Below, piece by piece: positions 3-33,842 of a stretch of DNA of 64,000 nt. The stretch covers positions 96,001-160,000 of the forward strand of contig CAXXKA010000001.1 in the NCBI GenBank assembly GCA_963668625.2, read 5' to 3'. Within the stretch, counting starts at the first letter, position 1. Every line of letters starts with the position of its first letter. The notes below the pieces were generated by a model, which saw only the letters and a program-made list of their open reading frames with translations, made no database searches and had not been told where the DNA came from. This DNA is from an uncultured candidate division Zixibacteria bacterium. GTDB lineage: Bacteria > Zixibacteria > MSB-5A5 > UBA10806 > 4484-95. The position numbers and the translations under genes were made by a program.

Positions 3-1022
3 AGCTGGATCGATATCACTGAGATCGGCGATGTGATCGAATTCCCGGATTTCGCCCGCGATGACGGTAACTCAGGTTGGGTCGGTTTAGGATTCGGATT
101 CGATTATTATGGCCGTCAATACGAAAGATTGAAAATCTGTACCAATGGCTGGGCCACTTTCATGGATGGTTATTTCGTCAACCCCGATAACCTCGGTTTC
201 CCGGATGAGACATTGCCTAACGATATATTGGCGCCATATTGGGATGATCTCACCATCGAGTATTACGGTGATATCTATTTCTATTCCAATGATGTCGATA
301 CCGCGATCATCACCTGGGATGGCGTTGCCAGCGCCCAGGATAATTCGCAGTACACTTTCCAGATTATACTCACCGCTCCCGATAATATCGTATTCCAATA
401 CAACTCCATGAGTCCTGCGAATAGAGAGGGCGGTTCGATCGGTATCGAGAACCGTACCGCTACGATCGGTCTCGAGGTTGCCAGAAACGAGGCGTATGTG
501 GAGGATGAGCTGGCGGTCGAGTTCTATCTGGGCGATTCCAACTCACTCGATTGGCTGCAAATAGGTTCGGAGACAGGTATCATTGAAGCTGACTCTGATA
601 TGCTAATTCCAATAACACTCGATGCTACCGGCCTGGATGATGGGCTCTATAGCGCGGTTTTGAGGATTTTAACCAACGATTATAACATGCTGGTTAACGA
701 AATTCCGCTCGATATGTATGTCGGTATCGTGGATATTAATCAGCCCGAGGCTTTGCCCGGTGAGTTTAAGCTCGATTCGGTTTATCCGAATCCATTCAAC
801 GCTGAAACCATGATAAGTTTCAACCTGGCCAGGCAGGGGAGAGTATCGCTCGATATTTATAATGTCATGGGTCAGAATGTGGAAACGCTATGCAATGATA
901 TCATGAACGCGGGCGAACACTCTGTTATTTGGAATGCTTCTGTTTACTCCTCGGGTATTTATTTCATAAGGCTTTCTGACGGTGTAATTTCACGCTCAGA
1001 AAGGGTGACATTGATCAAGTAA
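3..1022 (+). CDS. Secreted protein with T9SS type A C-terminal sorting domain (5'-truncated by window edge)
   Basis: Frame is open to the window start (SWIDITEIGDVIEFP...). C-terminus YPNPFN...WNA...SSGIYF...LIK is a typical CTD. Similar to the C-terminal part of the next gene. Confidence 0.85.
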   Translation, partial: SWIDITEIGDVIEFPDFARDDGNSGWVGLGFGFDYYGRQYERLKICTNGWATFMDGYFVNPDNLGFPDETLPNDILAPYWDDLTIEYYGDIYFYSNDVDTAIITWDGVASAQDNSQYTFQIILTAPDNIVFQYNSMSPANREGGSIGIENRTATIGLEVARNEAYVEDELAVEFYLGDSNSLDWLQIGSETGIIEADSDMLIPITLDATGLDDGLYSAVLRILTNDYNMLVNEIPLDMYVGIVDINQPEALPGEFKLDSVYPNPFNAETMISFNLARQGRVSLDIYNVMGQNVETLCNDIMNAGEHSVIWNASVYSSGIYFIRLSDGVISRSERVTLIK

Positions 1023-5041: not shown

Positions 5042-5870
5042 TCCAAACAATATGATTGCCGTATTGTGGGATGATCTCAATGGTTATGAAGGCACCTGCT
5101 ACTACTACTACGATGAGACAGAGAATCAATTCATCGTCTCCTGGACCGATTGGGGTTTCTATATTTACGGTGGTGATTCTCGTCGGTATGACATGCAGGT
5201 TATTCTTGATGGCGATGATAACTCGATTCTTTTACAATATGGTGATATCTCCGAGGGAGAATACGATAGTGATATTTCCGTCGGTATAGAAAACGCTGAT
5301 GGTGATGTCGGGCTTGAGTACGCCTATGACAACTTTACCGGCTCAGGCGGTCTGGCTATCAAGTTCAGCTATCCTCTGTTCTGGCTGACCGTGGACCCGA
5401 CTGTCGGCTATGTCATGCCCGAAGGTTCGCAGGTATTCGATGTCAACTTCAATTCGGCTGAACTCGAACAGGGTACCTATTACGGTGAGATTCGTATTAA
5501 CACCAACGATCCCAACAACGGCATGTTCAGCGTACCATGTACTTTGAACGTAGGCCCGGTCGGTATCGATGATTATTCATCGGCTGTTCCGAATGCGTTC
5601 GCGCTGAATCAGAACTATCCCAACCCGTTCAACCCGACTACCGAGATCTCGTTCGGCTTGCCGACCGCCGGTCACGTTAGCCTTGAGGTTTATGATGTCA
5701 TGGGTCGCAAAGTCAGTATCGTCGTTGACGAGGAGATGGCTGCCGGTACCCATAGCATAATCTGGGATGGTAATAACTTATCAGGTGAGAAGGTTACCTC
5801 GGGCGTTTATTTCTACAAACTCTCGCAGGGTGATAACACTACCACCAAAAAGATGATAATGTTGAAATAG
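4938..5870 (+). CDS. C-terminal part of the gingipain gene (+1 frame from ~5001) carrying the T9SS CTD/FlgD-like Ig domain
   Basis: IAVLWDDL module continues the upstream frame; ends LNQNYPNPFNPTT...SGVYFYKL...KKMIMLK; no signal peptide of its own. Confidence 0.85.
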   Translation: MFLSPIFRSAPTVGFLSMTTRSSYLTNAGIPGTSDPNNMIAVLWDDLNGYEGTCYYYYDETENQFIVSWTDWGFYIYGGDSRRYDMQVILDGDDNSILLQYGDISEGEYDSDISVGIENADGDVGLEYAYDNFTGSGGLAIKFSYPLFWLTVDPTVGYVMPEGSQVFDVNFNSAELEQGTYYGEIRINTNDPNNGMFSVPCTLNVGPVGIDDYSSAVPNAFALNQNYPNPFNPTTEISFGLPTAGHVSLEVYDVMGRKVSIVVDEEMAAGTHSIIWDGNNLSGEKVTSGVYFYKLSQGDNTTTKKMIMLK

Positions 5871-10127: not shown

Positions 10128-13100
10128 TTGTTGGATATTTTAGTAGTCAAAAGAAATTTCCCGGCTGTTGTTTTAGTGCTTTTATGCGGCCTGTTGAGTT
10201 TTAACTCGGCTTTCGCGGCAGTCGGAGAAATTGGCGCCACACTGGATTATAATTCAAAGTTTGCCCCGTCTCTGAGGTTGCCGGAAATCCCCGGTGGTCT
10301 GTCCATGGATCGGGAGTATTCTCCATTACTGGAATTAAACTATATACAAAGAGCCTGGCTGATAGAAGCGCCGGCGAATTCCGGTTACGTGTATTTTACT
10401 CTGTTTGCCGGGCCATATCAGCTTTATAATACGATCCCAATCAGTCGCGATAAATACACCAGGTATATTTCGGATAAATACTTCTGGGAAATCTGGCTGG
10501 ACGACATGGCCAATTTTACCGGTACCAAAGGCAAAGGCGAGCAATCCGAGGGATTCGTAATCAATCCGAATTTCAGACTCCCCAAGCAGGTAGAGTCGAT
10601 TATCGGTGAGGGCGGGCCGCGCATCAATGTCAGCGGTTCGAGACGAATTTCGTTCTCCGGTCGTTCGCAGTGGGATGACCTTCCCGAAACAGCCAACTAT
10701 AAACAGTCGAAATTCCCATCGCTTCACATGGAGCAAACCTCGCGGTTTAAAATCAAGGGCCAAATCGGCTCGAAAATCACTGTCGAGGTCGATCAGGATT
10801 CCAATCGTGATGTAGAGATAGCCAACACCTTGAAACTTCGCTATAAAGGCGAAGAGGATGAGATCATTCAATCTATCGAGGCGGGCAACACGAACCTGTC
10901 GTTGCCTAACTCGCAATTCATAGGTTTCTCGGAGAACGTGCAGGGTTTGTTCGGTATCAAGGCTACGGCTAAAATCGGTAATATCGATCTGACCGTAATC
11001 ACCTCGCAGGAGAAAGGCTCCAACGAGAAATCCACGTTTAACGCCGGCGCTCAGGCCTCGGCCGATACTATCTGGGATTACCAGTATCTTCATAATGTCT
11101 ATTTCTACCTGAGCGATCAATTCATGCCCGGTGACAGCCTCATCGATGTCAAGCTGTATACGAATGATTCCGAGCAGAATAAATACGGTTTGGCTTGCGT
11201 GTATCCGGTCAACGCCAATGGCGATGTCGGTGGGGTAGATTCTATTTTCAATGTATCGCCGGATGAGGAAACGCGAGATGAGGTGGAGCAGAGTTATTTT
11301 AAGTTGATGGAGCAGGGTGCGGATTACTACCTGTATAAAACCGGTAAGTACATAATCCTAAACCATCAGTTATCCGACGGCAACGTACTGGCTGCGTATA
11401 TCAAGTATATTCGGGACGGTCAGACTTTAGAGATCGGTAATATCACCTCCGATACGCTGGTATTGAAACTCATTCGCGACCGTACTCCCGATACCTCTTT
11501 TACCACCTGGGATTTGGAGTGGAAGAACGTATACGATTTACAGGCCAGGAATATCGCAGCCGAGGGATTCGTGCTGGATATATATAAAGGCCTGGGGGAT
11601 ATAACAACCGATACGATATCGCAGGACAGCAAACCATTCATAGAATTATTCGGTTTCGACCAGTATAATAACAACGATGCCTCGAACACCATCCCGGATG
11701 GTTTATTCGATTTCAATACCACAATCCCACATATAGATCCCGCGCTCGGCCATTTGATATTTCCCCAGCAAAAACCGTTTATATCCGAATTCCTGGATAC
11801 TCCGAACCCTGCGGTTTACGATTATAAATACACCAACACCAGCAGGGCGGATTCCAAGATGTATTACATGCATGTTCAGACCGCTACCAGGGCAAGTACG
11901 TTTACGCTGGGCAGGACGAATATTATCGAGGGCTCCGAGGTGGTTAAACTGGGTGACGGCACGGTGTTGAAAAAAGGCGTGGATTATAATATCGTTTACG
12001 AGATTGGTTCGATAACTTTTATCAACCAGGATGCTCTATCGGCTGCTTCCGATATAACAGTCGATTTCGAATACGCACCGTTTTTCATGCCCGAGAAGAA
12101 ATCATTGTTCGGCCTGGCGGCTGAATACAGGATTAACGAAAACTCCGCATTTACCATATCAGGTATGTACCGTAAAGAATCGACCAAGGAATTCCGTCCC
12201 CGTGTGGGGCATGAACCGAAACGCTGGTTTATCTGGGATTCGAACTTGCTGCTTCATTTCAAACCCGAATTCATTACCGACCTGGTGGATGCGTTGCCCC
12301 TGGTGGAAACGGATGCCGTCTCCACGCTGGAATTCTCCGGCGAGATTGCCCAGAACGTGCCGAATCCGAATACTCGTAACGAGGCTTATATCGATGATTT
12401 CGAAGGCTCTCGTCAGGCGACCGACCTGGTTATGCGAAGAGGTGTCTGGACAGAATCCTCGGCGCCGGTGGGCACGAACAGCCGAGAAGTTCACAACAAA
12501 CGTGATCTCTGGTGGTACAATCCATACGATCCCATATCGATACGGGAGATCTGGCCCGAGAAGGATGTTCAATCGCACGAGGATCGCCAGGATGTCTTAT
12601 TCCTGGAATATTATCCCGATAGCACGATCAATCCCGATACGCAGGGGTGGGCCGGTTTGATGAGGTCTTTGTATTCCGGCCTTGCCGATCAATCGAAAAC
12701 CAAGTTCATCGAGATTTGGTATTTGCCGGATACAACCGCTCTTTCTCATCCGGTACTTTATATCGATGCCGGTAATATCTCCGAGGATATTGATGATGAT
12801 GGTTTTAGAGATACCGAGGATAGGAACGGCAACGGTGTTTTCGAGGAAAACGAGGATACCGGACTGGACACGCTATACAGCGAGGATGAGATCGTGGAAA
12901 ATCCCGTTTCGCCCGATGATCCAGCCGGGGATGATTGGGATTACAGCAACAGTTATGAGTATTCCCATATCAATGGCACGGAGGGAAACCGTCAGGACCC
13001 GGACAGGCTTAACCGTATCGACACCGAGGATATCAACGGTAACGGCGCGCTCGATTTATCGAATTCGTATTATGAATACACTATCGATTTAAACTATGAG

Positions 13101-16100
13101 GAGTATGTCGAGGAGACAACAACCTCCGGCTGGAAATTACTGAGGATACCTTTCCAGGATTCCTCCGTTTACTCGACTGTCGGTAATCCCGATAATAGTA
13201 GTATTAATTTCGTAAGGATGTGGATCAGTGGCGTTAGCGATCACTATCTGTTGAAACTGGCAACCATGGATTTCGTCGGGAATAAATGGCAGGAGCTATC
13301 CACGCCGGACCCGGTATACATGCACGGCATCCCGGTTTCGCCGACTTTCGAGGTTTCGGTGATTAACAGTCAGGAGAACGCCGCTTCATACGAATCACCG
13401 CCGGGAGTCGCCGGTGAGTACGATCAGGAAACGGGTATTCAGGAAAAAGAACAATCACTGGTACTGCAATATGATGGTTTATATCCCGGGCAAAGGCTGG
13501 GCGCCTACTGGACTCTTCTGACTACAGAGGATTACACGCTTTATAATCAACTTAAGATGTTTGTCCATGGGGATGAAAACCTTCCCGAGGATTTACCGGT
13601 TAACTTTTTCTTCAGGCTGGGCACGGACTCTGTCACCAGTTTCTATGAGTATCGTACCAGGCTATACCCCGGCTGGGATGAGAGAAATTATGTTGATATC
13701 AACTTCACCGATATAACCGGACTGAAAGCGATCTGGCAGGCGGAAGCGGAAAACGAAACCCTGAGTGTTGGGTTAACCGATATTAGCTACGGCAAGTACA
13801 GGGTTAAAGGCAATCCATCACTTTCCACCATTAAGATGTTCGTCATCGGGATAGAATACGATTCTTTGTTATTGGATACTACCTATGTCGGCGTCGATTC
13901 GGTTATCAGTATCGATACCACCCGTGTTTCGCCGGTGCCTATTGACGGCCAGGTGTGGGTAGATGAGCTGCTATTAACGGGGGTTCGCAAGAAATCAGAT
14001 TTTGCCGGCAGGTTCCAGGCTAAAGTAAGCCTGGCTGATCTTGGTAACGTAACGATTAATTACTCGCGTACGGGAACGGATTTTTACAAGCTGAACGAAA
14101 AGAAACCACCGGGCAAGCTGACTACCTCGCGGTCGATATCAGGCAGTATCAACGTGGACAAGTTTTTCCCTCCCTCATGGGGCCTAAGCCTGCCGGTAAA
14201 TGCCAGTTGGCAAAAATCTCTGGATTTGCCCAGGTTGAAAACCGGCTCGGATGTCGTATTGCCGGAAGATCTTAAAGATGACGAGAAAACGGAGAATAAA
14301 AGCTGGCAGATTTCGGTAACCGAGAGGTTCAGCAAGAATACCAAAAATTGGCTGTTCAATTGGACATTGAACAGAATCCAGTCGCGTTATGTCTATTCGC
14401 GCAGGGATGGTATCAACCCGACACAGCCGGTCAGTAATATGACCTCGTTCGAGCTTTCCAGCTCGTATGATTTATCGCCCAAGAGCAAACCCGCGATAAA
14501 ACCGTTCAAGTGGACAAAAGCTTTATTCTTACCGAAAACCATATACGATATCGAGATGTTTTACCTTCCGACCACTATCAAATACGACATGCTGGTTAAA
14601 GGTACCAAATCGTACACCGAAAGGAAAAATGTAGCTCCGACCTCTACCTATACCAAAAATTTCACCGGTAAACAAAGCTATGCTATTGGCTTGTTCAACG
14701 CTTTAAGGGCGGATTTCAATACCCAGACAGATAGAGATATAAGTGATCCTGATCTGGTAAACCTCTCTTTCAATCCGGCTGATATAAGGCTCGGCCGTGA
14801 GAAAACTTATTCGCAAAGTTTAAACTCATCATTCTCACCTAAAATTACCAGGGCCCTGGCGCCGCGTTTCACGTATTCGGCTAAATATTCGGATAATTCC
14901 GATCTCGCGCGCAATCCCGATTCCACCAGATCATCCAGCGCTAATTCGAGTATCCGCGGAGATTTGACCCTCGATGTGTTTGAAATTACGGGTATCAAAA
15001 AACTGCTCGGCGCCGGAGAGCAGAAGAATAAATTCGTCAAACCACCCGGTAAACCTAGAGATGAGGAGAGAGAGAAAGAGGAGCCCGAGGAGAAAGGCGA
15101 GGGTTCTATCGATGGCGGCGATAATGTAGACGAAAGCAAGGATAAAGCCGATGACGACGAGCCGAAAAAGAAGATTAAAATACCCAATCCGCTGATTGGA
15201 GTTAAAAAAGTATTTTCCATCCTTAACACGGTCAAGCCGTTAAAAACTACCGTCTCCGTGGATAAGAGAATGGATAGGGCCGGTCTATACACACGACCCG
15301 GCTGGTATTACACGCTGGGGTTCACGGATGATCCTGATGTTTTACGAAAGGATGAAACCACTTATACACGCGACCAGATAACCAGGACAATGGATTACTC
15401 GCTGCAATCGGGAATTACGCCGTTAAGGAATCTCGATATTTCATCATCATATAAATTCCGTGAATCGATATCGAGAAGTAGTAACTCGACCGAGCCCACC
15501 GGGACTAATTCCGTGGAATTCCCCAGGATCGATGCTAATATCTCGGGATTGCATAGCTTACCGATATTCAATAAGCTCACGAGCTCGATGACATTGCAAT
15601 CGAATTTCACGAAAAAAATCGATGAATCCGGTAATCCCGATACGGATGTCGTGAACAGCCGAACCGATAATCAATCGTTCTCGCCGGTGGCCGGATTGAA
15701 TATCGTGCTGGTCAATGACGTTAAACTCACTTTCAGGTACGATTGGACGAAGAAGAAGACCGAGGACCTTAGGCCTGAAGGTAGTAATAGAACCGATTAT
15801 GATAATAGTAGAACTTTTAAAGTATCACTAAGCTATTCGTTCACTGCTCCCAAAGGAGTTAACCTTCCGCTATTTGGTAGATTCAAATTCACCAGCCAAC
15901 TCACTATGTCGCTGGATGTCAACAAACGCTTTTCGAAATCGTGGTTCGTTAATAGCGAGAACGAAAAAACTACGGATGCCGAAAGCGAGGAGATATCTAT
16001 CGAACCTCGTATGACCTACCGGTTCTCGGCGAAAGTAACCGGCGGTATTAACGCCAAGTGGAGTGACGCTGATGATAAAATTCAGGATCGCAAACGTCAT

Positions 16101-16139
16101 GTTAGGGAGCTAGGCATATGGACGGAATTAAGATTCTAA
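10128..16139 (+). CDS. sprA: T9SS outer-membrane translocon SprA/Sov homolog
   Basis: 2003 aa, signal peptide, KLRYKGEEDEIIQSIEAGN, QGLFGIKA, AYIDDFEGS, DTEDING, VWVDEL, C-terminal Phe. Confidence 0.9.
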   Translation: MLDILVVKRNFPAVVLVLLCGLLSFNSAFAAVGEIGATLDYNSKFAPSLRLPEIPGGLSMDREYSPLLELNYIQRAWLIEAPANSGYVYFTLFAGPYQLYNTIPISRDKYTRYISDKYFWEIWLDDMANFTGTKGKGEQSEGFVINPNFRLPKQVESIIGEGGPRINVSGSRRISFSGRSQWDDLPETANYKQSKFPSLHMEQTSRFKIKGQIGSKITVEVDQDSNRDVEIANTLKLRYKGEEDEIIQSIEAGNTNLSLPNSQFIGFSENVQGLFGIKATAKIGNIDLTVITSQEKGSNEKSTFNAGAQASADTIWDYQYLHNVYFYLSDQFMPGDSLIDVKLYTNDSEQNKYGLACVYPVNANGDVGGVDSIFNVSPDEETRDEVEQSYFKLMEQGADYYLYKTGKYIILNHQLSDGNVLAAYIKYIRDGQTLEIGNITSDTLVLKLIRDRTPDTSFTTWDLEWKNVYDLQARNIAAEGFVLDIYKGLGDITTDTISQDSKPFIELFGFDQYNNNDASNTIPDGLFDFNTTIPHIDPALGHLIFPQQKPFISEFLDTPNPAVYDYKYTNTSRADSKMYYMHVQTATRASTFTLGRTNIIEGSEVVKLGDGTVLKKGVDYNIVYEIGSITFINQDALSAASDITVDFEYAPFFMPEKKSLFGLAAEYRINENSAFTISGMYRKESTKEFRPRVGHEPKRWFIWDSNLLLHFKPEFITDLVDALPLVETDAVSTLEFSGEIAQNVPNPNTRNEAYIDDFEGSRQATDLVMRRGVWTESSAPVGTNSREVHNKRDLWWYNPYDPISIREIWPEKDVQSHEDRQDVLFLEYYPDSTINPDTQGWAGLMRSLYSGLADQSKTKFIEIWYLPDTTALSHPVLYIDAGNISEDIDDDGFRDTEDRNGNGVFEENEDTGLDTLYSEDEIVENPVSPDDPAGDDWDYSNSYEYSHINGTEGNRQDPDRLNRIDTEDINGNGALDLSNSYYEYTIDLNYEEYVEETTTSGWKLLRIPFQDSSVYSTVGNPDNSSINFVRMWISGVSDHYLLKLATMDFVGNKWQELSTPDPVYMHGIPVSPTFEVSVINSQENAASYESPPGVAGEYDQETGIQEKEQSLVLQYDGLYPGQRLGAYWTLLTTEDYTLYNQLKMFVHGDENLPEDLPVNFFFRLGTDSVTSFYEYRTRLYPGWDERNYVDINFTDITGLKAIWQAEAENETLSVGLTDISYGKYRVKGNPSLSTIKMFVIGIEYDSLLLDTTYVGVDSVISIDTTRVSPVPIDGQVWVDELLLTGVRKKSDFAGRFQAKVSLADLGNVTINYSRTGTDFYKLNEKKPPGKLTTSRSISGSINVDKFFPPSWGLSLPVNASWQKSLDLPRLKTGSDVVLPEDLKDDEKTENKSWQISVTERFSKNTKNWLFNWTLNRIQSRYVYSRRDGINPTQPVSNMTSFELSSSYDLSPKSKPAIKPFKWTKALFLPKTIYDIEMFYLPTTIKYDMLVKGTKSYTERKNVAPTSTYTKNFTGKQSYAIGLFNALRADFNTQTDRDISDPDLVNLSFNPADIRLGREKTYSQSLNSSFSPKITRALAPRFTYSAKYSDNSDLARNPDSTRSSSANSSIRGDLTLDVFEITGIKKLLGAGEQKNKFVKPPGKPRDEEREKEEPEEKGEGSIDGGDNVDESKDKADDDEPKKKIKIPNPLIGVKKVFSILNTVKPLKTTVSVDKRMDRAGLYTRPGWYYTLGFTDDPDVLRKDETTYTRDQITRTMDYSLQSGITPLRNLDISSSYKFRESISRSSNSTEPTGTNSVEFPRIDANISGLHSLPIFNKLTSSMTLQSNFTKKIDESGNPDTDVVNSRTDNQSFSPVAGLNIVLVNDVKLTFRYDWTKKKTEDLRPEGSNRTDYDNSRTFKVSLSYSFTAPKGVNLPLFGRFKFTSQLTMSLDVNKRFSKSWFVNSENEKTTDAESEEISIEPRMTYRFSAKVTGGINAKWSDADDKIQDRKRHVRELGIWTELRF

Positions 16140-17089
16140 AAATCAAAGCGATTTCATTATTTATTATTATGGTATTCTTATCTGGTTATAGTTGTATAGA
16201 TGATAACCCCACTGACCCCGATTATGTCGATGATGATTCGAATTTGGCCAGGGGAGCCTGGACTATAGCCTCGCCGCCGTCAGGCAAACAGGTGGCGGCT
16301 ATTAACAAGATGTTATGGTATAATCCGTACGATCCTGTATCGATTACCGATATCTGGCCTGACAGCACCGTAGATGTTTCCGAAAATAAACAAACGGTTT
16401 TATATCTCGATTATAGCTTGTTTGACATACTTTATTTGGACAGCGCCTCCTGGTGCGGTATTATGAGAACAACGTTCGAACTCGAGAGCACGATCGATTA
16501 CGAATACCTTAATCTCTGGCTGAAAGTTGATACGCTAATCGGCGTGAGCGATGTTGTATTCAATATCGATATCGGCGTTATAAGCGAGGATATCAATTAT
16601 AACGGCAGGCTCGAGACCGAGGATAGAAATTTAAACGGAGTATTCGAATCGAACGAGGATACCGGGCTTGATACTTTAACCGATGCCCAGGAGATGGCTG
16701 TAATACTAGATCCGGTTTATCCCGATGATCCGAGTGGCGATAACTGGGAATGGAGCGACAGCTATACATATACTTATATTAACGGTACCGAGGGGAACAG
16801 GAACGACTCGCAGAGAGAGAATTTGCCTGATACAGAGGATATTAACGGTGACGGAAGCCTGAATCTCGATAATGCTTATTTCGAGTATCGTATAGATCCG
16901 TTTAATTCTACATATGTCCAAACGGTTACCTCCACCGGCTGGATCAACATACGCATTCCGATTTACGAACAGAGCGCCTATCAAGTTATAGGAAACGCCT
17001 CATTCGATAATTTAAATTGTTTAAGAATATGGTTGCCTGTCGATGAAAATAGAGTTAAGATAATGATTGCCGTACTTGATTTGGAGTAA
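16118..17089 (+). CDS. Predicted lipoprotein made of a stand-alone copy of an internal SprA segment
   Basis: Lipobox-like LSGYSC; colinear with SprA aa ~770-1050 (WYNPYDP, ISEDI, TEDRN.NGVFE.NEDTGLDTL, INGTEGNR, DTEDING). Confidence 0.8.
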   Translation: MDGIKILKIKAISLFIIMVFLSGYSCIDDNPTDPDYVDDDSNLARGAWTIASPPSGKQVAAINKMLWYNPYDPVSITDIWPDSTVDVSENKQTVLYLDYSLFDILYLDSASWCGIMRTTFELESTIDYEYLNLWLKVDTLIGVSDVVFNIDIGVISEDINYNGRLETEDRNLNGVFESNEDTGLDTLTDAQEMAVILDPVYPDDPSGDNWEWSDSYTYTYINGTEGNRNDSQRENLPDTEDINGDGSLNLDNAYFEYRIDPFNSTYVQTVTSTGWINIRIPIYEQSAYQVIGNASFDNLNCLRIWLPVDENRVKIMIAVLDLE

Positions 17090-17114: not shown

Positions 17115-18044
17115 ATGCAATCGATGGGCATAGTGAATAAATTATCCGTATCCGTATTGATTTTGGCTGCCTGGGTCATATTCAGCGGTTGTTCGCAAAG
17201 CATTCCGAAATTCGATAAAGCTAAATCGTACAATTATATTATCGAGCAATGCGCGTTCGGCGCTCGCGTACCCAACAGTGAGGCCCACGATAAGTGCGAG
17301 GACTATCTATTTGACAAATTGTCCGAATTCTCCGAAAATGTCAGACGCCAGAAATTCACTTACTATGATAGCTCCCGTGCGGATACGCTCCATCTGACTA
17401 ACTTATTAGCTTCTTTTTACCCGGAAGAAACGCAGCGTATTCTTCTGTGCGCACACTGGGATTGTCGACCGTGGGCGGATAAAGAGGCCGATTCGAGTTT
17501 ACATAACCAACCGGTTATGGGCGCTAATGATGGAGCCTCCGGTGTGGCTCTACTTTTGACACTGGCCGAGATAATCAAGAATAATCCTCCCGGAATGGGC
17601 GTGGATATTATCTTCTTCGATGGTGAAGATTACGGCAAATATAATGAATCGGACGAGTGGCTCCTGGGTAGCAAGTACTTTACGGAAAATATCGGTAATT
17701 ATCACCCCATGTATGTTATTCTTGTCGATATGATCGGTGATAGCGATTTGAATATCCATAAAGATTATTACTCCAATACATATAGCGGCTGGTTGACCAA
17801 TCGTGTTTGGAAAGCTGCCGAGATCGAACAGGCCGAGCATTTTCACCCCGATGTTTTACACACTGTTTATGATGACCACGTACCATTTTTGCTAATCGGG
17901 ATTCCGGCCGTGGATATTATTGACATGGACTATAAATGGTGGCATACTCTTAAAGATATTCCCGAAAACTGCTCGCCGGAAAGTCTTGACGAGGTCGGCA
18001 GGGTGGTGATAAGAGTGCTGTATGATAAAGAGTTACGAGGATGA
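17115..18044 (+). CDS. M28 family lipoprotein, glutaminyl cyclase-like
   Basis: FSGC lipobox; AHWD.RP.AD, GANDGASGV, FDGEDYG, DMIG, DDHVPF, WHT. Confidence 0.85.
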   Translation: MQSMGIVNKLSVSVLILAAWVIFSGCSQSIPKFDKAKSYNYIIEQCAFGARVPNSEAHDKCEDYLFDKLSEFSENVRRQKFTYYDSSRADTLHLTNLLASFYPEETQRILLCAHWDCRPWADKEADSSLHNQPVMGANDGASGVALLLTLAEIIKNNPPGMGVDIIFFDGEDYGKYNESDEWLLGSKYFTENIGNYHPMYVILVDMIGDSDLNIHKDYYSNTYSGWLTNRVWKAAEIEQAEHFHPDVLHTVYDDHVPFLLIGIPAVDIIDMDYKWWHTLKDIPENCSPESLDEVGRVVIRVLYDKELRG

Positions 18045-18103: not shown

Positions 18104-19258
18104 ATGGAAATGAGAAGACTGAGTTTAATAACTCTTATTATATTTATGGTTTCATCGCCAACTTACGCCCAGGAAAACCATTCGGCATTCGTTGGGACGT
18201 TTTCTAGCACATCATCTAATGCCACGATATTAGAGATTAGAACACCCGAGAATATCAGAAGCGATATAACGGTTGAGACACACGAGTTCAATACCATTGA
18301 GGGTAACTTCCGCATCTGGGCCAGAGCTAAAAGCAAGGAGCAGGAGAATCGCTTTATCAAGCTTATCGAGGTAAAACTGGATGAGCGTGGTGGTAATGAG
18401 CAAACTGTCAGGGTACGCGTGCTAACTCCAAAAACTGCCCCCTGGCAAGGAACATCGTATGTTATAGGGGCCAGTCTCGAGATCAAAATACCTGAAGGCT
18501 TTAGGGTCGATTCGCGAAGCATGTTCGGCAATGTGACCATTGAGGGACCGCTAAGCTATGTTGAGGTAGACTGCGAAAACGGCTCGGTAGAGGTTAATAA
18601 TGTCGATGGTGAGACGAATATCAGAACATCCAATGCCGATATCGATGTCAGCGATATAGAAGGATTGATAAGTATAGAAACCGTTCATTCGGATATTTTC
18701 GCCAGTGATATCAATATTACCGAGGAATGTGGCATATTCAGCTCGTCAGGGGGCGAACTCGAATTTGAAAATATCAACGGCCCAATCGAGGCTACCACCA
18801 GCAATGATGATATAACCGTGTACAACCTCAATACCGAGACCGGGGCAATACTGTTGCGCAATACTTACGGTAAAATCAAAGGTTCAAATATCCGGGGAGA
18901 ACTAGTTGCCGAAACGAGTTACCAACCTATTGAGCTGGAAGATATTCATCTGGTGAAAGGTGTTTGCAAGTTCGAGACGATGTATTCTCCCATCGATGTC
19001 GAAATCGCTGAAATCGGCGATTCACATCTGCTGATAAGTAACACGTTCAACGCTATCAACCTGAAACTACCCACCGATACCTCCGCCAAGCTGATTCTAA
19101 ATGTCGGCGAGGGTGGGAAAATCCACACGAAAGGACTATCAATCAAGCCGCTCGTTATGGATAAAAATCGGCTGGTTGGCATAGTCGGGGATGGCATTTC
19201 TCGAATAGAGGCAAATGTAGAGGGCATCGGTTCGATAAATATTAACGGCGAACGTTAA
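18104..19258 (+). CDS. DUF4097-like beta-strand repeat secreted protein
   Basis: Signal peptide; repeated G.I.I.T.N/S..I units. Confidence 0.7.
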   Translation: MEMRRLSLITLIIFMVSSPTYAQENHSAFVGTFSSTSSNATILEIRTPENIRSDITVETHEFNTIEGNFRIWARAKSKEQENRFIKLIEVKLDERGGNEQTVRVRVLTPKTAPWQGTSYVIGASLEIKIPEGFRVDSRSMFGNVTIEGPLSYVEVDCENGSVEVNNVDGETNIRTSNADIDVSDIEGLISIETVHSDIFASDINITEECGIFSSSGGELEFENINGPIEATTSNDDITVYNLNTETGAILLRNTYGKIKGSNIRGELVAETSYQPIELEDIHLVKGVCKFETMYSPIDVEIAEIGDSHLLISNTFNAINLKLPTDTSAKLILNVGEGGKIHTKGLSIKPLVMDKNRLVGIVGDGISRIEANVEGIGSININGER

Positions 19259-29095: not shown

Positions 29096-31420
29096 CTATT
29101 TTAGCAATACCATTTTTCTGGATTCGGAATATTTATCCGTCTCCAACTTATAGAAATAAACACCGGATGGTATTCCATTTGCCTGCCATGTTACCTGATG
29201 TTCACCGGCGGGCTGGCTATTATCCACCAGAGAACTTATCTTTCTGCCCAGGATATCATAAACATCCAGCTTGACATCCGTGCTCCTGGGCAGATTGTAT
29301 TTTATGATCGCGCTTTCGTTAAATGGATTGGGGTAAGCACAGGTAATCATTGATTTTTCAGGAAGCAAATCATTATCGGATTCAGGCACGGATGTCTGGT
29401 TGAGGACTTTTCCCAGGGTCCAACTCGTACTATAAAGCGATGCATCGTTACCATTATCGGAATGGTCATGGATGATATCGCCGTTGCCTTCCTCCATGGG
29501 CCAGTAAGCAACCAGTCCGGGCTCGTTGCCCTCGAGCGTTACATTTATTGATGATTGAATCTCTGTGCCGGATCTAGCATGATCCCAGATTCTCAACTCA
29601 TCGATTAAACCATCAAAAGTTTCCGCTAGTCCTTCGGCGTTACCGATATAAAGGTTTTCATACAGGTTGTCGTTTATCCCGCCCACAGGCGGATTAATTT
29701 GAGAGAGTGTTCGAGGAGATCCGTTTATATAAAGCAACATGCCATCGCTCAGGTTATAAGTTACGGCGATATGCTGCCAGGAATTCAACCGAATGGATAA
29801 ATCTGGCGAATAGCTGAAACCACTCGTACTCTCTGAATCGTTATGAAAGATCACCAGACAACTGTCGTTCAACGTGCCGCCTGCCCGGCAAATGAAAATC
29901 CCTATATTGGCTTTATCGATTATTTTGCCCAACCCGATCGAGGTATTTTCTCCCCAACCATCAGGATATATCCAGCCCTCAATGGTAAAAGCATCCGTGA
30001 TATTGAGGGTTGGATCAGCTTCGCATAGTGCGTAGCTTTCCATTCCATCGAACTGAAGAGCCGAATAACCATCGAAAACCTGCACGTAATTTTCATATAT
30101 GACGGTATGGGTATCGGCATCGCATACGATACCCAGCTTAACAGTGTATTCGCCGGACTCATCGAAAGTATAAGTCGGATGTTGCTCGTACGAATCTATC
30201 TGGCCGTCGTCGTCGAAATCCCAGAGCCGGCCGGTGATAGGTTGAGCCGGTAGGGAGGTATCCTCGAACTCCACTTCGAGAGGAGCATGGCCTGTAGTGG
30301 GCGAACCCTCGAATCGATAATTATAGAGCATATTTTCGAACCAGGCGATCTCATTGCCATATTGGGCCGAACCTAAAATGTCAACATCCCCGTCCTGATC
30401 GACATCAATGATACTCAAACCGGTCGCGCCGTCGAAATTATCGATGACGATATGTTTCGTGAAATTCTGTAAACCGTCATTTTCCCACCAGGATATTTCA
30501 TCGCCGTCTATCGCAATACCTATTACATCGACATCACCGTCATTATCGAAATCGGCGGTGCGTACCAGGTGAGGACGGCGAAAATCCGAATCGATTTCGA
30601 TATACGATAGATTTCCGTCGCCGTCATTTTCCCACCATCCAATGCGATTAACTTCGCATACCGTAGTCAGCAAATCCAAATCGTCGTCTCCGTCCAGGTC
30701 ATCAGCATATATACAGCTCGGCCGTCCCCAGTTTTGGGAGATAATGTTATCAGTAAAATTGCTCTCGCCGTCATTTTCGAATACACAGATAATCGATGAA
30801 ATGCTGGCCGTACCCATCAAGTCCATGTCGTCGTCACCATCCAGATCGCCCGCGCAGATATGATTTGCGCGTGTCCAGTCATCGTGAAAAATATGTGGAG
30901 TGAAATCCTCCGCGCCATCGTTTTCGAACCAGCCTATTCTGCTGGTATTGTATTCACAGGCGGTTGCCATTATATCCAAATCTCCGTCGCTGTCGATATC
31001 GGCTGCTTTCGCCAGGTTAGCTCCGGGCCAACTGGCTATATTGCGACGTTGAAACTGAAGCTCGCCGATATTTTCAAGCCAGCCTATGCATGCGCCGGAG
31101 TTTAAGGCAATGACAATATCCATATCACTATCCTGATCAAGATCGATTACCTGGCAAGCCATAGCTCCGGGGACAGTCGATGATATCGAATGCATAGTGA
31201 AATTCTGATTTCCGTCGTTTTCCCACCAGTCCAGACGCCCCCCGTAAAATGATGTCGCTACGGCATCGATATCGCCGTCAACATCGAGATCTACTCCCTG
31301 AACCCACCATGGGCTGTTATAGTCGCCGGCTATGATATGCTCTGAAAACTCAGGTTGAGCCAAACATAGCGACGCGGAAAATACTATTAGTATCGTTAAT
31401 CTTGCTACCGGTTTGTTCAT
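29096..31420 (-). CDS. T9SS cargo: FG-GAP/VCBS beta-propeller + PKD + LamG + CTD
   Basis: Seven D.D.DGD.D...W.EN.G repeats, WDFDDDG PKD, WQHIAVTY/FDGLIDELRIW LamG, YPNPFN CTD. Confidence 0.88.
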   Translation of the reverse strand: MNKPVARLTILIVFSASLCLAQPEFSEHIIAGDYNSPWWVQGVDLDVDGDIDAVATSFYGGRLDWWENDGNQNFTMHSISSTVPGAMACQVIDLDQDSDMDIVIALNSGACIGWLENIGELQFQRRNIASWPGANLAKAADIDSDGDLDIMATACEYNTSRIGWFENDGAEDFTPHIFHDDWTRANHICAGDLDGDDDMDLMGTASISSIICVFENDGESNFTDNIISQNWGRPSCIYADDLDGDDDLDLLTTVCEVNRIGWWENDGDGNLSYIEIDSDFRRPHLVRTADFDNDGDVDVIGIAIDGDEISWWENDGLQNFTKHIVIDNFDGATGLSIIDVDQDGDVDILGSAQYGNEIAWFENMLYNYRFEGSPTTGHAPLEVEFEDTSLPAQPITGRLWDFDDDGQIDSYEQHPTYTFDESGEYTVKLGIVCDADTHTVIYENYVQVFDGYSALQFDGMESYALCEADPTLNITDAFTIEGWIYPDGWGENTSIGLGKIIDKANIGIFICRAGGTLNDSCLVIFHNDSESTSGFSYSPDLSIRLNSWQHIAVTYNLSDGMLLYINGSPRTLSQINPPVGGINDNLYENLYIGNAEGLAETFDGLIDELRIWDHARSGTEIQSSINVTLEGNEPGLVAYWPMEEGNGDIIHDHSDNGNDASLYSTSWTLGKVLNQTSVPESDNDLLPEKSMITCAYPNPFNESAIIKYNLPRSTDVKLDVYDILGRKISSLVDNSQPAGEHQVTWQANGIPSGVYFYKLETDKYSESRKMVLLK

Positions 31421-31466: not shown

Positions 31467-33842
31467 TTACTTTAGAAGCATCATCTTTCTTACTTCCGTG
31501 TTTTTCCCCGATGAGAGTTTGTAGAAGTAAATCCCCGATGGCATTCCCTTCGCGTTCCAGGTAACTTTATGTTCCCCCGAGGGCATCCGACCTTCGGCTA
31601 TTGTTTCGATCTTGCGTCCCAGTATATCGAAAATCTCTAACTTAATCATATCGGGGCGATCGAGCCGATAGCATATTATAGCGCTGTTATTGAATGGATT
31701 GGGATATGCCTGCGAAAGACCGGATTTTTCCGGAAGAAAATTACTTTCGCTTTCAATATCTGTCGGCTCCAATTGTTTTCCGGCAGCCCAGCGCACATCG
31801 ATTAGCATGCCGCTATTAAGGTAGTAACTGTTGTCCCAGGCGAATTCATCACCGCCTTCATCCATTCGCCAATTGAGAATGAGATTATCCGATCCACCGT
31901 CAACGTAATTGTTCATGCAAACATTGATCAAATGACCGGAGCGAACGGTGTCCCATATCCTTAGTTCATCGATGACACCATCGAACGTATGTGAACCCTC
32001 GATGCTGTTTCCGACTATCAAATCGATATCTGAATTGTCCTGAATCGGGCCGTCGATAGCGGTAGTTGATGTCAACTCCTGCGAGACGCCGTTGATATAT
32101 ATGTTAACCTCGTTGATAGCATCATAGCTGACAGCTATATGTTGCCACTGATCGAGCGTTATCGAGTTCTCCGGAGTATTGATAAATCCGCCGGCGCCGC
32201 CGGAGTCCCTGAAATAAAACACGAGACTGTGACTATTTAAACCGCCATGATCATAAAGGGACAACTCTATATAGTTTTTATCGAGAATGCTACCCATACC
32301 CATCGAGATGTTCTCGCCCCAGCCGTAAGGATGTATCCAGGCCTCGATAGTAAACGGCCCGATTAAGTTCATCGATTCGGAAGCCGGGCTGCTGACATAG
32401 CTGACTTCGCCATCGAACTCCAACGCGCTTTGGCCGTCGAATACGCGAACGTAATCCTCGTAAGTAGTCTCGGTAGAATGAATACCATCCGATATTTTGA
32501 GCCTTACCGAGTAATTGCCGGGAGATGTATATTCGTGAGCAGGGTTTTGATCGTATGAATCGGTCACACCATCGTTGTCGAAATCCCATTCCCATGAACT
32601 GGCGTTACCAAGCGATTGATCGGTGAAATTAACCTCATGCGGAGCATGGCCCGAGGGAGTATCCACCGCAAATGATGACTCGAGGTTCGACAGCATCATT
32701 ACGAAAATATCGAACGCTCCATTGCCCCGGGCATTGGTTTGGCCCGCGACAAGGTAGCCGTTGCTAATCTCGCAGATATCATCAGCCCAACTGGAGCCGG
32801 GTGTATCTATGGTCGTACTCCAAAGCTCGTTGCCCGTGGAATCGATTTTGATCAGGTGAACGTTATTGCCATTGATAGTTGATTTCGTTACCCCGCAAAG
32901 AATATAGCCGCCGTCGCTTGTCTGTACGGCGTCCCTGCCGAAATCGTAAAATGTACTTACTCCAAGAAGCTGCTGCCAGCGGAAACTGCCGTCGCTTTCG
33001 ACCTTGATAGCATTAAAATCATAAATTTCCCGGTTGTGACGGCTGGCATGTCCAACCAGTAAATATCCGCCGTCATCAGTGCGGATTATGGAATGGCACC
33101 AGTCATGGTTGAGGTTGAGATCGGAACCGTATGTGCCCATATCGTATATATCGCCGTCGCTATCGATCCAGGTCAAATAACTGTCGCGGTTATCCGTACC
33201 GCCGGGGGAGGTTTTAGTGCCTCCGAAAACATAGTTGCCGCCCAGTTGGAATATGGCGTCTCCCGAGGTGGATCCTAAACCATCATAGATATCACTCCAT
33301 TCCTCGTTGCCGTTCGAATCTACCTTGATGATATAGGTATCGTGTTCGCCCAGCTCATCACTTTCGGCCCAGCCGCTTATTATATAACCGCCATCCGAGG
33401 TTTGAATAACATCCTGGCCGATCTCCTCGACAGCGGTTCCATATGTAGCTTGCCATTCCTGAATACCGGAGGAGTTGATTTTTAGCAGGTAAACATCCTT
33501 GCCGCCCGTACCGAATGAACTGGTGTATCCGACTATGACATAGCCGCCATCTCCGGTTTGCCTGACACGGTTGGCATAGTCTCGTAATGCGCCACCGTAG
33601 GTATAGCTGTTTAACTCGTTGCCGAAAGCATCGATTTTGACCAGTAATATATCCGAACTGCCATTGCCTTCCGAAAAAGTATAGCCGGCGAGAACCGCGC
33701 CGCCATCGCTGGTGGGGCAAATGGATCTAGCGCCCTCGGACAGCGAATCGCCGATAGTGATAGTCCAGACGGTATCGAGCTGGGCGAAACAGGGTGTTGC
33801 CATGATGAATATCACCAGTATCGTTCTTAGAATTTTACTCAT
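31467..33842 (-). CDS. T9SS cargo: QT.DGGY-repeat beta-propeller + PKD + LamG + CTD
   Basis: Start MSKILR overlapping upstream stop; repeats QTSDGGYI..G...D.YL.K.DS.G...W; WEWDFDNDG; FDGVIDELRIW; YPNPFN. Confidence 0.88.
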   Translation of the reverse strand: MSKILRTILVIFIMATPCFAQLDTVWTITIGDSLSEGARSICPTSDGGAVLAGYTFSEGNGSSDILLVKIDAFGNELNSYTYGGALRDYANRVRQTGDGGYVIVGYTSSFGTGGKDVYLLKINSSGIQEWQATYGTAVEEIGQDVIQTSDGGYIISGWAESDELGEHDTYIIKVDSNGNEEWSDIYDGLGSTSGDAIFQLGGNYVFGGTKTSPGGTDNRDSYLTWIDSDGDIYDMGTYGSDLNLNHDWCHSIIRTDDGGYLLVGHASRHNREIYDFNAIKVESDGSFRWQQLLGVSTFYDFGRDAVQTSDGGYILCGVTKSTINGNNVHLIKIDSTGNELWSTTIDTPGSSWADDICEISNGYLVAGQTNARGNGAFDIFVMMLSNLESSFAVDTPSGHAPHEVNFTDQSLGNASSWEWDFDNDGVTDSYDQNPAHEYTSPGNYSVRLKISDGIHSTETTYEDYVRVFDGQSALEFDGEVSYVSSPASESMNLIGPFTIEAWIHPYGWGENISMGMGSILDKNYIELSLYDHGGLNSHSLVFYFRDSGGAGGFINTPENSITLDQWQHIAVSYDAINEVNIYINGVSQELTSTTAIDGPIQDNSDIDLIVGNSIEGSHTFDGVIDELRIWDTVRSGHLINVCMNNYVDGGSDNLILNWRMDEGGDEFAWDNSYYLNSGMLIDVRWAAGKQLEPTDIESESNFLPEKSGLSQAYPNPFNNSAIICYRLDRPDMIKLEIFDILGRKIETIAEGRMPSGEHKVTWNAKGMPSGIYFYKLSSGKNTEVRKMMLLK

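Follow-up and report, generated by a model that had tools for sequence, protein, structure and literature searches.

A free-standing paralogue of SprA's first folded insert, encoded across the sprA stop codon in a Zixibacteria genome, belongs to a wider set of free SprA-module proteins

The window, that is, the whole stretch of 64,000 nucleotides analysed here from the genome of an uncultured Zixibacteria bacterium, carries on its forward strand a gene for SprA, the outer-membrane translocon of the T9SS (positions 10128-16139, + strand), followed directly by an open reading frame of 323 codons plus a stop (P0001; 16118-17089, + strand), which encodes the free-standing SprA-module protein that is the subject of this analysis. 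SprA/Sov is a giant (36-strand) outer-membrane beta-barrel. The upstream product, 2003 amino acids long from its first listed start (a TTG), is identified as SprA by its matches to TIGR04189 (722 bits, cut-off 200) and to SprA_N (112 bits). As the first-pass annotation of this DNA had it, the two genes overlap by 22 nucleotides (16118-16139, + strand): the ATG of P0001 stands at 16118, the sprA stop codon ends at 16139, and the MDGIKIL codons that open P0001 are the +1 frame of the codons for GIWTELRF and stop that close sprA. A candidate Shine-Dalgarno-like motif, TAGGGAG (16103-16109, + strand), read from the sequence 8 nucleotides before the ATG, falls within conserved R-E codons of sprA. 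Further downstream lie an M28-family glutaminyl-cyclase-like lipoprotein gene (17115-18044, + strand; Pfam M28, E 9e-32), whose product finds its best solved relatives among bacterial glutamine cyclotransferases (E 1e-52 to 1e-58), and orf384 (18104-19258, + strand), the conserved third gene of the sprA cluster, which encodes 384 amino acids with a signal peptide and without a family match. No terminator-like site appears on the + strand between sprA and orf384, which says little; the promoter and terminator scans ran at shuffle level (22 versus 20.9 and 11 versus 9.6, respectively); PADLOC gave no match for P0001, orf384 or the M28 gene. A contig from one sequencing run covers the whole stretch and a second run from the same sample bridges the sprA junction, these two runs possibly being the source of the assembly itself, and two other studies contributed pieces of 151-235 nucleotides at about 99% identity to the locus.

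The claim that this protein is colinear with an internal segment of SprA holds: BLASTP aligned P0001 with the upstream SprA at 124 of 284 identities (44%) and 63% positives (E 1e-73), and residues 43-322 pair with SprA residues 769-1049 (nucleotides 12432-13274) with seven gapped positions. The segment of sprA that corresponds to the free copy spans 12387-13274 (+ strand; codons 754-1049), and a search of the genome returned two matches only, P0001 and SprA. The motifs picked out by eye in the first-pass annotation (WYNPYDP, ISEDI, TEDRN.NGVFE, EDTGLD, GDNW, INGTEGN and DTEDING) are all present, most of them in columns that are invariant over 22 aligned sequences. P0001 is not itself a giant barrel, being 323 amino acids long and colinear with SprA 769-1049 only; it reaches 48.3 bits against TIGR04189 (below the cut-off of 200), with only profile positions 998-1189 of 2319 matched, and 22.9 bits against Pfam SprA_N (PF14349; gathering threshold 27) through residues 224-260 only. 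Pfam and NCBIfam hold no family for a free SprA-module protein and returned matches to SprA only. The open reading frame is a stand-alone paralogue of SprA's first folded insert, a beta-jelly roll from which an acidic loop region extends, and the picture of an excised, intact, non-barrel module with clean boundaries agrees with both the open frame and the alignment.

Over 34 SprA sequences, 24 columns show no variation; the free copy retains 23 of these, as well as 15 of 17 near-invariant ones, while its identity in the other columns is 37% (84/230). A metagenomic orthologue (P0003), 324 amino acids long and intact, is 64% identical to P0001 and retains the MDGIKIL start, the lipobox Cys and the IDD motif; since MDGIKIL is kept, the same overlap with sprA is implied in the genome from which P0003 derives. 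The invariant columns and the intact orthologue bear out the view that the copy has been maintained, and we are highly confident that the gene is real and constrained. Other genomes of this family lack the gene in 9 of 9 cases, so that it is not needed for the T9SS as such. A single metagenome-contig scan with P0001 and P0003 reached three loci, all full-length SprA, and no further close orthologue; a genome-contig scan with a single protein, the window's own record excluded, pointed to Zixibacteria as nearest and again to no close orthologue; and the ESM Atlas yielded only SprA_N-labelled clusters, with scores of 0.91-0.92, a recognition value under the reliable range. The P0001 module is 45% identical to the module of its own SprA and 41-43% identical to those of relatives' SprA, and there is no sign of recent matching between P0001 and its own SprA.

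Residues 43-323 (16244-17086, + strand) make up the beta-jelly-roll module, the homologue of SprA's first folded insert. An AF2 model of P0001 (mean pLDDT 72.7) is a single beta-sandwich plus loops, which superposes on SprA chain 8gl6_A (VIA-align) with a Z of 20.9 and an rmsd of 3.5 over 274 residues, and an alignment profile matches F. johnsoniae SprA (6h3i_A) at residues 933-1258 (E 1.7e-33). What P0001 shares with SprA/Sov of F. johnsoniae (PDB 6H3I, 6H3J, 8GL6) is fold, homology and the conserved acidic motifs; SprA/Sov is a barrel translocon, whereas P0001 is a fragment-sized paralogue with a signal peptide and lipobox of its own and without the barrel. The acidic loop region (16580-16897, + strand; residues 155-260), the most conserved part in sequence, carries the motifs ISEDI, TEDRNLNG, EDTGLD, DDPSGDNW, INGTEGNRND and DTEDINGDG, and the model is poor in these loops (pLDDT below 50 at residues 184-221); to judge from their sequence, the loops may bind metal. 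The nearest folds other than SprA are the carbohydrate-binding modules CBM11/28/30/4 (Z 8-10.4; Foldseek E about 1e-3), of which CBM11/28/30 align over about 145 residues with Z 9.8-10.4 and rmsd 3.2-3.7. This likeness lies in the jelly-roll core, while the large acidic loop insertion of P0001 has no counterpart in the CBMs; the structural alignments have 10-14% identity, and no Pfam CBM match was obtained for P0001 at E 0.01. The shared fold is in itself no demonstration of function or of sugar binding.

Ahead of the module, positions 16118-16195 (+ strand) encode a predicted signal peptide ending in a lipobox-like G-Y-S-C, with Cys26 at 16193-16195. The lipoprotein-type signal proposed earlier stands as far as the lysines (K5/K8/K10), the hydrophobic stretch AISLFIIMVFL and Cys26 are concerned, and is less clear at the lipobox, whose residues at -3 to -1 (G-Y-S) are atypical, as is the G-F-C-C of P0003; the Cys itself recurs in P0003 and throughout the family. 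The signal is caught by a permissive home-made regular expression, the crude pattern that assigns 111 lipoproteins to this genome. An acidic tether follows, IDDNPTDPDYVDDDSN (16196-16243, + strand), in which I-D-D aligns with SprA Y754-I-D-D-F-E: TGT ATA GAT GAT in P0001 stands opposite TAT ATC GAT GAT in sprA, the lipobox Cys replacing SprA Tyr754, and the D-D pair of P0001 may on this alignment be inherited from the IDDFE motif of SprA. PMC5080379 gives C-X-K-(D/E)2, SDDDD and SDDFE as forms of the lipoprotein export signal of Bacteroidota. P0001 resembles lipoproteins with this signal in its acidic residues at +3 and +4 after the Cys (C-I-D-D), but its +2 residue is Ile, where the signal as described in that text has a polar or positive residue (PMC5080379), and the signal has been tested in Bacteroidota only, a phylum to which the organism of P0001 does not belong. 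Acidic residues at both +3 and +4 are found in 16 of the 111 predicted lipoproteins of this genome, and at least two acidic residues at +2 to +5 in 27 of 35 lipoprotein-type family members, versus 26 of the 111 crude-pattern lipoproteins of this genome. P0001 lacks a T9SS C-terminal sorting domain (TIGR04183 / PF18962), the protein ending one residue past the module.

In all six relatives compared, sprA is followed directly by the M28 gene and then by orf384 (one orf384 being partial, at the end of its region), whereas in the window the M28 gene is displaced from sprA and has a signal peptide different from the relatives'. Because the M28 gene stands exactly there in six of six relatives, the free copy sits on that gene's old start. 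The DNA of the junction at the sprA end aligns with that of G001, G002 and G004, in which the position of the P0001 signal is held by the signal peptide of the M28 lipoprotein, and the relatives' overlapping frame runs straight into that signal peptide (for example, MDRIKILSAVAAAVFLALAAFPLAC in G004). In the tree, P0001 and P0003 nest within the SprA proteins of family f1 on a long stem (0.75). We hypothesize that, in the lineage of this species, a stretch of sprA from about codon 754 to codon 1050 was duplicated over the beginning of the gene that follows, that for the glutaminyl-cyclase-like lipoprotein; that the copy would have taken over this gene's translation start, which overlaps the sprA stop, together with its signal-peptide position; and that a single A>G change would have turned SprA Tyr754 into the lipobox Cys. 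We consider such a local origin, with capture of start and signal, probable, and if it is right the locus offers a clean case of an internal domain becoming a lipoprotein by capturing its neighbour's start and signal peptide; insertion at the locus of a pre-existing family gene that was later converted would also fit the tree. As the start taken over overlaps the sprA stop, the free copy would be co-transcribed and translationally coupled with sprA. Two candidate traces of tandem duplication, a likeness of the M28 N-terminus GIVNKL (in G000) to the SprA C-terminus GIWTEL and another of the P0001-M28 spacer to the 3' end of sprA, were discarded as too weak and post hoc.

P0001 does not stand alone. 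Within the phylum (taken as Zixibacteria from the names of the nearest contigs), free copies were found in at least 17 of 285 genomes, and about 35 metagenomic lipoproteins carry a free SprA module as well. Five variants combine a signal peptide with a T9SS type A sorting domain, TIGR04183 scoring above its cut-off in three of the five (P0031, P0047 and P0051). Five or more families of the phylum maintain free copies, which are also found outside it, and decayed ones occur too (a copy split over two frames in G073 and a 126-amino-acid remnant in G034). Most lie amid unrelated housekeeping genes, and neighbours conserved across lineages were looked for around the free copies and not found. The proposed search for short SprA-domain lipoproteins next to sprA in other genomes turned up free copies, none of which adjoins sprA, all 16 of the other 16 free copies in the phylum lying away from it. 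P0001 exemplifies a broader group of free "SprA-cap module" proteins, which seems not to have been described before.

The phylogeny of these modules follows that of the translocon in each genome. Placing all free copies in one clade is rejected (dlnL 866, p-AU 6.8e-6), and free copies each group with the SprA of their own genome, even where they are syntenic orthologues of one another or have two modules in permuted order. In G173 and G176 the free genes share synteny over six genes, and their module 1 is 61% identical to its own SprA versus 51% between the two free copies (p-AU 8e-4, for groups chosen after the first tree had been seen), while their second domain forms a free-copy clade (support 93/96). 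The permuted two-module forms have one shared architecture, and both of their modules group with the resident SprA (p-AU 1.5e-40, likewise for groups chosen after that tree; support 100/99). As the free copies group with their own SprA and not in one clade, the data indicate concerted evolution of the modules and the resident sprA, through either gene conversion or recurrent re-templating. Younger pairs of free copy and sprA are present in the genera g19 (73-79% amino-acid identity), g64 and g78. Concerted evolution by gene conversion in dispersed bacterial paralogues is familiar from the duplicated tuf genes and the pilE/pilS cassettes, which the present case resembles in that free copy and SprA are alike within a genome beyond the likeness of orthologues between genomes; it differs in its partners, one being a lipoprotein in its own right and the other a module inside a giant barrel, and in that the order of the modules is sometimes permuted. 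At the level of the family, this would be a new way for a satellite protein to be coupled in its evolution to a secretion machine. Windows of raised third-position identity between free copies and the resident sprA (60-70% versus about 37% in G031) were dropped as a sign of conversion, being confounded by amino-acid identity.

The overall explanation that we find best, combining local origin, a lipid anchor, surface display and mimicry of the SprA cap, is put forward tentatively, its chances as a whole falling a little short of even. The mature protein would carry a lipid anchor in the outer membrane and face the outside of the cell, as suggested by the presumed place of the SprA insert in the extracellular cap, by the similarity of C-I-D-D to the export signal, and by the relatives that carry a T9SS sorting domain; surface exposure of the free copy is, in our estimation, slightly favoured. 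The folded inserts of SprA are extracellular according to a review, and the placement of this module outside the cell combines that sentence with our reading of the flanking strand-like segments; where the module lies in the SprA structure is taken from the review text and from the ranges of the sequence and fold alignments. A protein so displayed would present a matched copy of the exposed translocon module, and could engage whatever docks on that module, be it the natural ligand or, in the manner of a decoy, a hostile agent (a phage receptor-binding protein or bacteriocin, for example). A mimic or decoy role, although it is the mechanism that we favour, is speculative and less likely than not, and it is more doubtful still that the family consists of decoys kept matched by recurrent gene conversion, or of expressed donor cassettes that diversify the exposed cap. 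Were the proteins decoys, phage receptor-binding proteins, bacteriocins and predators docking on the cap would be titrated away from the translocon; and in either role, decoy or donor cassette, the evolution of the pore would be linked to that of a detached copy of its outer face. One literature match for sprA together with phage was false, resting on the word "spraying".

The partners of SprA named in the available text of PMC10994853 are PorV, Plug, PPI, SprE, SkpA and PorD, none of which is described there as a partial copy of SprA. P0001 would be like them in being a small protein genetically tied to sprA, and unlike them in sequence, no relation being seen in Pfam and NCBIfam, which gave SprA matches only. 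Nor did the T9SS papers that we searched describe a free SprA-module component, in keeping with the initial statement that none was known from described T9SSs; a literature search for the T9SS together with Zixibacteria found no paper.

A partner-like role would suit an alternative in which P0001 is an outer-membrane lipoprotein facing the periplasm, where it would bind whatever the insert binds during SprA biogenesis or gating (BAM, Skp-type factors or a Plug-like role). Translational coupling with sprA is what might be expected of a protein that takes part in assembly or acts in stoichiometric amounts. The lipobox departs from the usual pattern, the export-signal rule has been demonstrated in Bacteroidota only, and several periplasmic accessory proteins belong to the extended translocon as presented in PMC10994853. 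Yet the review places SprA's folded inserts outside the cell, a T9SS sorting domain would lead to export of the relatives that carry it, and acidic residues after the Cys are over-represented in the family; moreover, the other free copies of the phylum lie away from sprA in 16 of 16 cases, and close relatives with the same sprA cluster have no free-copy gene. On these grounds we regard a periplasmic partner as unlikely.

The remaining alternatives do without a present function at the translocon. P0001 could be a surface or secreted lectin-like or Ca-binding protein that reuses the jelly roll, for a glycan or the cell's own LPS, as might be thought from the CBM11/28/30/4 modules being its nearest non-SprA folds, from the acidic loop motifs being its best conserved part, and from the position of most free copies among unrelated housekeeping genes; but a fold match is no proof of sugar binding, and neither the closeness of the two-module forms to the resident SprA in both modules nor the position of the free copy on the sprA stop is explained in this way, which leaves such a role quite improbable. 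Lastly, the gene could be a by-product of local rearrangement, a duplicated fragment behind a signal peptide that is tolerated and heading for loss. The very narrow distribution (this genome and one metagenomic orthologue), the long, fast stem after the duplication, and the decayed copies in G073 and G034 are consistent with such a fate, whereas two lineages with 36% divergence both have an unbroken open reading frame, 23 of 24 SprA-invariant positions have been kept while the rest drifted to 37% identity, the Cys and the IDD motif are conserved, and proteins of this kind persist in no fewer than five families of the phylum as well as outside it; we give this reading the lowest probability of those considered.

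Under the preferred reading, a surface-displayed copy of the cap module, the free copy hints at a function of the cap, or a vulnerability, that is worth duplicating for cells. Natural soluble, separately encoded cap modules also provide a handle for expressing and studying them alone, and the locus extends T9SS biology to Zixibacteria. SprA is, to our knowledge, the largest known single-chain outer-membrane barrel. The T9SS is heavily used in this genome, where 150 Por_Secre_tail matches scored above cut-off, out of 229 candidates, and SprA is the exit pore of a secretion system used here for 150 or more proteins.

Directly downstream of a 2003-aa frame (10128-16139, forward strand) lies an open frame of 323 aa (16118-17089, forward strand; product P0001), whose start codon falls 22 nt within the larger gene. 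The 2003-aa frame encodes SprA, the outer-membrane translocon of the T9SS (722 bits with TIGR04189, cut-off 200; 112 bits with Pfam SprA_N), and residues 43-322 of P0001 align colinearly with SprA residues 769-1049 (BLASTP, 44% identity, 124/284, E 1e-73). The first-pass annotation had described a diverged yet intact protein, colinear with an internal SprA segment and overlapping the sprA stop by 22 nt, and the alignment and frame coordinates confirm this description. P0001 itself falls below the thresholds of both SprA models (TIGR04189, 48 bits vs 200; SprA_N, 22.9 vs 27), and a search of its genome (G000) found two module matches only, SprA and P0001. The whole stretch is covered by the contig of one public run, and the sprA/P0001 junction is bridged by a second run from the same sample, although these two runs may themselves be the source of the assembly; pieces of the P0001 gene (151-235 nt, with 1-2 differences) occur in two runs of other studies.

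An AF2 model of P0001, based on a 22-sequence alignment (mean pLDDT 72.7, pTM 0.73), is confident in its beta-sandwich core and poor in the acidic loops (184-221). Three solved SprA chains rank first in both Foldseek and VIA-align searches with this model (Foldseek E 3.6e-14; VIA-align Z 20.9, rmsd 3.5, 274 residues, 26% identity), and the next-best folds are beta-jelly-roll carbohydrate-binding modules at Z of about 8-10. The alignment profile matches residues 933-1258 of F. johnsoniae SprA (E 1.7e-33). Strand-like segments flank the module in the window's SprA, as read from its sequence, and a second folded domain then runs to about residue 1290; we infer that the module is part of the SprA extracellular cap.

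As a reference for conservation, we used 281 aligned module columns from 34 SprA sequences of the phylum, 24 of them invariant and 17 conserved at 90% or more. P0001 retains 23 of the 24 invariant and 15 of the 17 highly conserved columns, while elsewhere in the module it shares only 37% identity with its own SprA (84/230); judged by its sequence, the gene is constrained, not debris. Its orthologue P0003 (324 aa, from another assembly) is 64% identical to P0001 over its full length and preserves its Cys, the I-D-D after the Cys and all acidic motifs. P0003 begins with MDGIKIL (residues 1-7), which is what the conserved SprA C-terminus GIWTELRF* gives when read in the +1 frame, and an equivalent overlap with sprA is therefore most probable for its gene. 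Taken as a whole, the comparisons establish P0001 as a maintained, by prediction separately translated, copy of an SprA cap module.

How the copy came to lie at the end of sprA can be approached from its relatives. A SprA match is present in all 41 relatives' genomes scanned, among which only G000 and the distant G031 have a full-length short frame; SprA stands alone in 9/9 same-family genomes other than G000. In 6/6 relatives checked (two congeneric and four from its family; L022-L026, L028), sprA is followed directly by an M28-family lipoprotein gene and then a 384-aa gene, and the sprA-M28 interval is too small for an additional gene. In the window, this conserved cluster comprises, besides sprA, the M28 glutaminyl-cyclase-like lipoprotein gene (17115-18044), whose product has bacterial glutamine cyclotransferases as its best solved relatives (E 1e-52 to 1e-58), and a gene (18104-19258) whose secreted product of 384 aa matches no known family. 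In genomes G004, G002 and G001, the M28 signal peptide is encoded in direct continuation of the frame overlapping the sprA stop, as in MDRIKILSAVAAAVFLALAAFPLAC; within the window, the equivalent start is that of P0001, and M28 follows 25 nt past the P0001 stop with another signal peptide. In G003 and G005, M28 more likely starts with an ATG that coincides with the sprA stop or immediately follows it, and the overlap is hence not universal. Codon alignment at I-D-D (sprA GCT TAT ATC GAT GAT, A-Y754-I-D-D; P0001 AGT TGT ATA GAT GAT, S-C26-I-D-D) therefore places the putative lipobox Cys at exactly SprA Tyr754, one transition apart.

In the tree, P0001 and P0003 are nested within the SprA of their own family, beside genera g1 and g5, and their stem is long (0.75 changes per site); the set formed by f1 and f2 SprA (f, family) with P0001/P0003 has support of 99, the inner placement only 80. 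On the simplest reading, sprA codons ~754-1050 would have been copied locally to where the cyclase-like gene starts and would then have diverged rapidly; a tandem duplication from the module through the M28 signal peptide, with later loss of the barrel half, would provide a few-step route. Alternatively, an already existing family member may have been inserted at the sprA end and converted afterwards by the local sprA, a course that would also bring it among its own family's SprA. Duplication traces were considered as evidence of tandem duplication and are too weak to count. The displaced M28 N-terminus, GIVNKL (17124-17144), resembles the SprA C-terminus, GIWTEL (16112-16132, sprA frame), perhaps as a slight remnant of an sprA end that was duplicated, but the likeness is too weak to use.

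Such a copy proved not to be unique to this genome. A profile of eight free copies (stand-alone module proteins), run against 285 genomes of the phylum, all of one class and with Zixibacteria as the nearest named contigs, matched in 274, with two or more matches in 29; re-examination of the 28 besides G000 revealed 16 with a short frame carrying the module right behind a signal peptide and Cys (nine of 365-427 aa, seven of 600-769 aa). Free copies are thus present in at least 17 of the 285 genomes, G000 included, and in five families (f1, 1; f9, 9; f10, 2; f13, 3; f16, 2). The search proposed earlier for counterparts adjoining sprA came out otherwise, as none of the other 16 is sprA-adjacent (0/16): they are found on contigs other than that of sprA, or 720 kb from it in G222, among unrelated housekeeping genes, and no neighbour gene conserved across the lineages of free copies was found. 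Decayed copies in G073 (one of the short frames counted above, split into two adjacent frames of 211 and 190 aa; L043, G073:C1:868543-869569) and G034 (a 126-aa remnant; G034:C27:45696-46010) indicate that the family also undergoes loss. On one contig, G107 has two long SprA-like frames of 1178 and 2013 aa (at G107:C1:2151950-2152933 and 1737984-1739015), which may reflect a second or broken sprA.

A profile search of a large protein collection (lengths 177-987 aa, E <= 1e-10) yielded 60 proteins, sorted by N-terminus, with several Cys positions set by eye. About 35 are of lipoprotein type, and five (P0031, P0047, P0049, P0051, P0056) combine an ordinary signal peptide and the module with a T9SS type A sorting domain at the C-terminus, TIGR04183 exceeding its cut-off in 3/5; the others are SprA fragments. 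The sorting-domain forms would be cargo of the very pore that their module copies. They come from high-GC organisms, one labelled Candidatus Binatia by its source; another free form, whose signal is not of lipoprotein type, comes from a possibly mis-binned contig that bears the label Hyphomicrobiales.

Short free forms consist of the module alone, and the long forms of f13, like P0009, correspond colinearly to SprA 769-1287, which covers the module and the next cap domain. In the long forms of f9 and f16 (G074, G146, G142, G206) and in P0023, P0025 and P0026, a homologue of SprA 310-650 comes after the module (BLASTP against the window's SprA, E 1e-15 to 6e-24), and thus these proteins join, in permuted order, two parts that lie apart in SprA. 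These permuted lipoproteins (640-770 aa; L029, L030, L033, L035 and the three proteins) run from about 767-1050 to about 310-650 in SprA numbering, and the nearest relative of both segments is the resident SprA, that of the same genome.

Free copies do not form a lineage apart from SprA. In a tree of 23 free and 34 SprA modules over 281 columns (omitting the split G073 copy and the G142 SprA, which gave no usable fragment), at least 13 changes between free and SprA labels fall on starred branches, nearly all free copies are placed beside the SprA of their own genome or genus, and forcing all free copies together costs 866 log-likelihood units (p-AU 6.8e-6). Two groups, set by synteny or architecture but picked for testing after the first tree, bear on whether repeated fresh origin could suffice. 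The free genes of G173 and G176, which represent two genera of f13, share a six-gene neighbourhood and are therefore positional orthologues; their second domains form a clade (support 93/96), whereas their first modules are 61% identical to their own SprA vs 51% to each other, and holding the free copies together there is rejected (dlnL 37, p-AU 8e-4). For the four permuted long forms, whose shared architecture makes several separate assemblies unlikely, a common clade is rejected for module 1 (dlnL 159, p-AU 1.5e-40); in module 2, FREE_G074 (the free copy of G074) groups with its resident SPRA_G074, and FREE_G146, G142 and P0023 with SPRA_G146 (support 100/99), the G146 pair being 66% identical, against 36-42% when FREE_G146 is compared with SprA from elsewhere in f9. 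Because both groups side with resident SprA despite their shared position or architecture, repeated fresh origin cannot account for the whole pattern, and we conclude that in several lineages the sequence evolution of the modules is concerted with that of sprA, through either gene conversion or repeated re-templating. Present-day free/SprA pairs share 52-79% identity, which means that the events are not recent, and no conversion tracts between free copies and resident sprA were demonstrated. The window pair gives a weak signal (P0001 45% identical to its own SprA vs 41-43% to others).

At least two D/E at +2 to +5 after the Cys occur in 27/35 lipoprotein-type members vs 26/111 G000 lipoproteins predicted by a crude regex of our own, loose enough to admit P0001; the rows are kin, and the comparison is descriptive. 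The family pattern, C-[SGI]-D-D, is similar to lipoprotein export signals reported for Bacteroidota (C-X-K-(D/E)2, SDDDD, SDDFE; PMC5080379). P0001 is probably lipid-anchored and displayed on the cell surface, and the occurrence of lipoprotein and sorting-domain forms, two putative surface routes in one family, fits an extracellular workplace. Across the 111 predicted lipoproteins, the commonest residue is S at +2 and D at +3 and +4, with D/E at both +3 and +4 in 16/111, which suggests that a Bacteroidota-like export signal may exist in this phylum.

T9SS sorting-domain matches above the Pfam cut-off number at least 150 in G000 (229 candidates, 150 scored), and four lie in the window (780-992; 5616-5858; 29108-29335 and 31479-31706, both reverse strand). 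The P0001 gene appears to be coupled to sprA, and its product would present at the cell surface the face that the translocon's exposed module also shows; such mimicry is speculative, but is our best guess. A need to match the resident pore would be expected of a decoy against cap-binding attackers, and likewise of a partner sharing the cap's ligand. Phage resistance in Flavobacterium reportedly maps in part to gliding and T9SS genes (two papers, by title), and PADLOC gave no defence-family match for P0001, the M28 protein or the 384-aa protein. Among rival roles, a periplasmic assembly or gating helper would keep the tie to sprA but has to be set against the predicted surface routes; an independent lectin-like or Ca-binding surface protein would suit the jelly-roll likeness and acidic loops, but less the grouping of free copies with resident SprA; and a tolerated by-product must be weighed against the retained invariant columns.

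Pfam and NCBIfam hold no family for P0001, only sub-threshold SprA matches. The literature searched, with most subscription journals outside it, contained no free SprA-module component, no mention of gene conversion with SprA, T9SS or lipoproteins, and no paper on T9SS and Zixibacteria; within this scope, the first-pass statement that described T9SSs include no such component stands. Concerted evolution with sprA is the part that specialists would find surprising. We file P0001 within the known SprA family, and its relatives are named 'hypothetical protein' by their sources, with fragments named 'cell surface protein SprA'.
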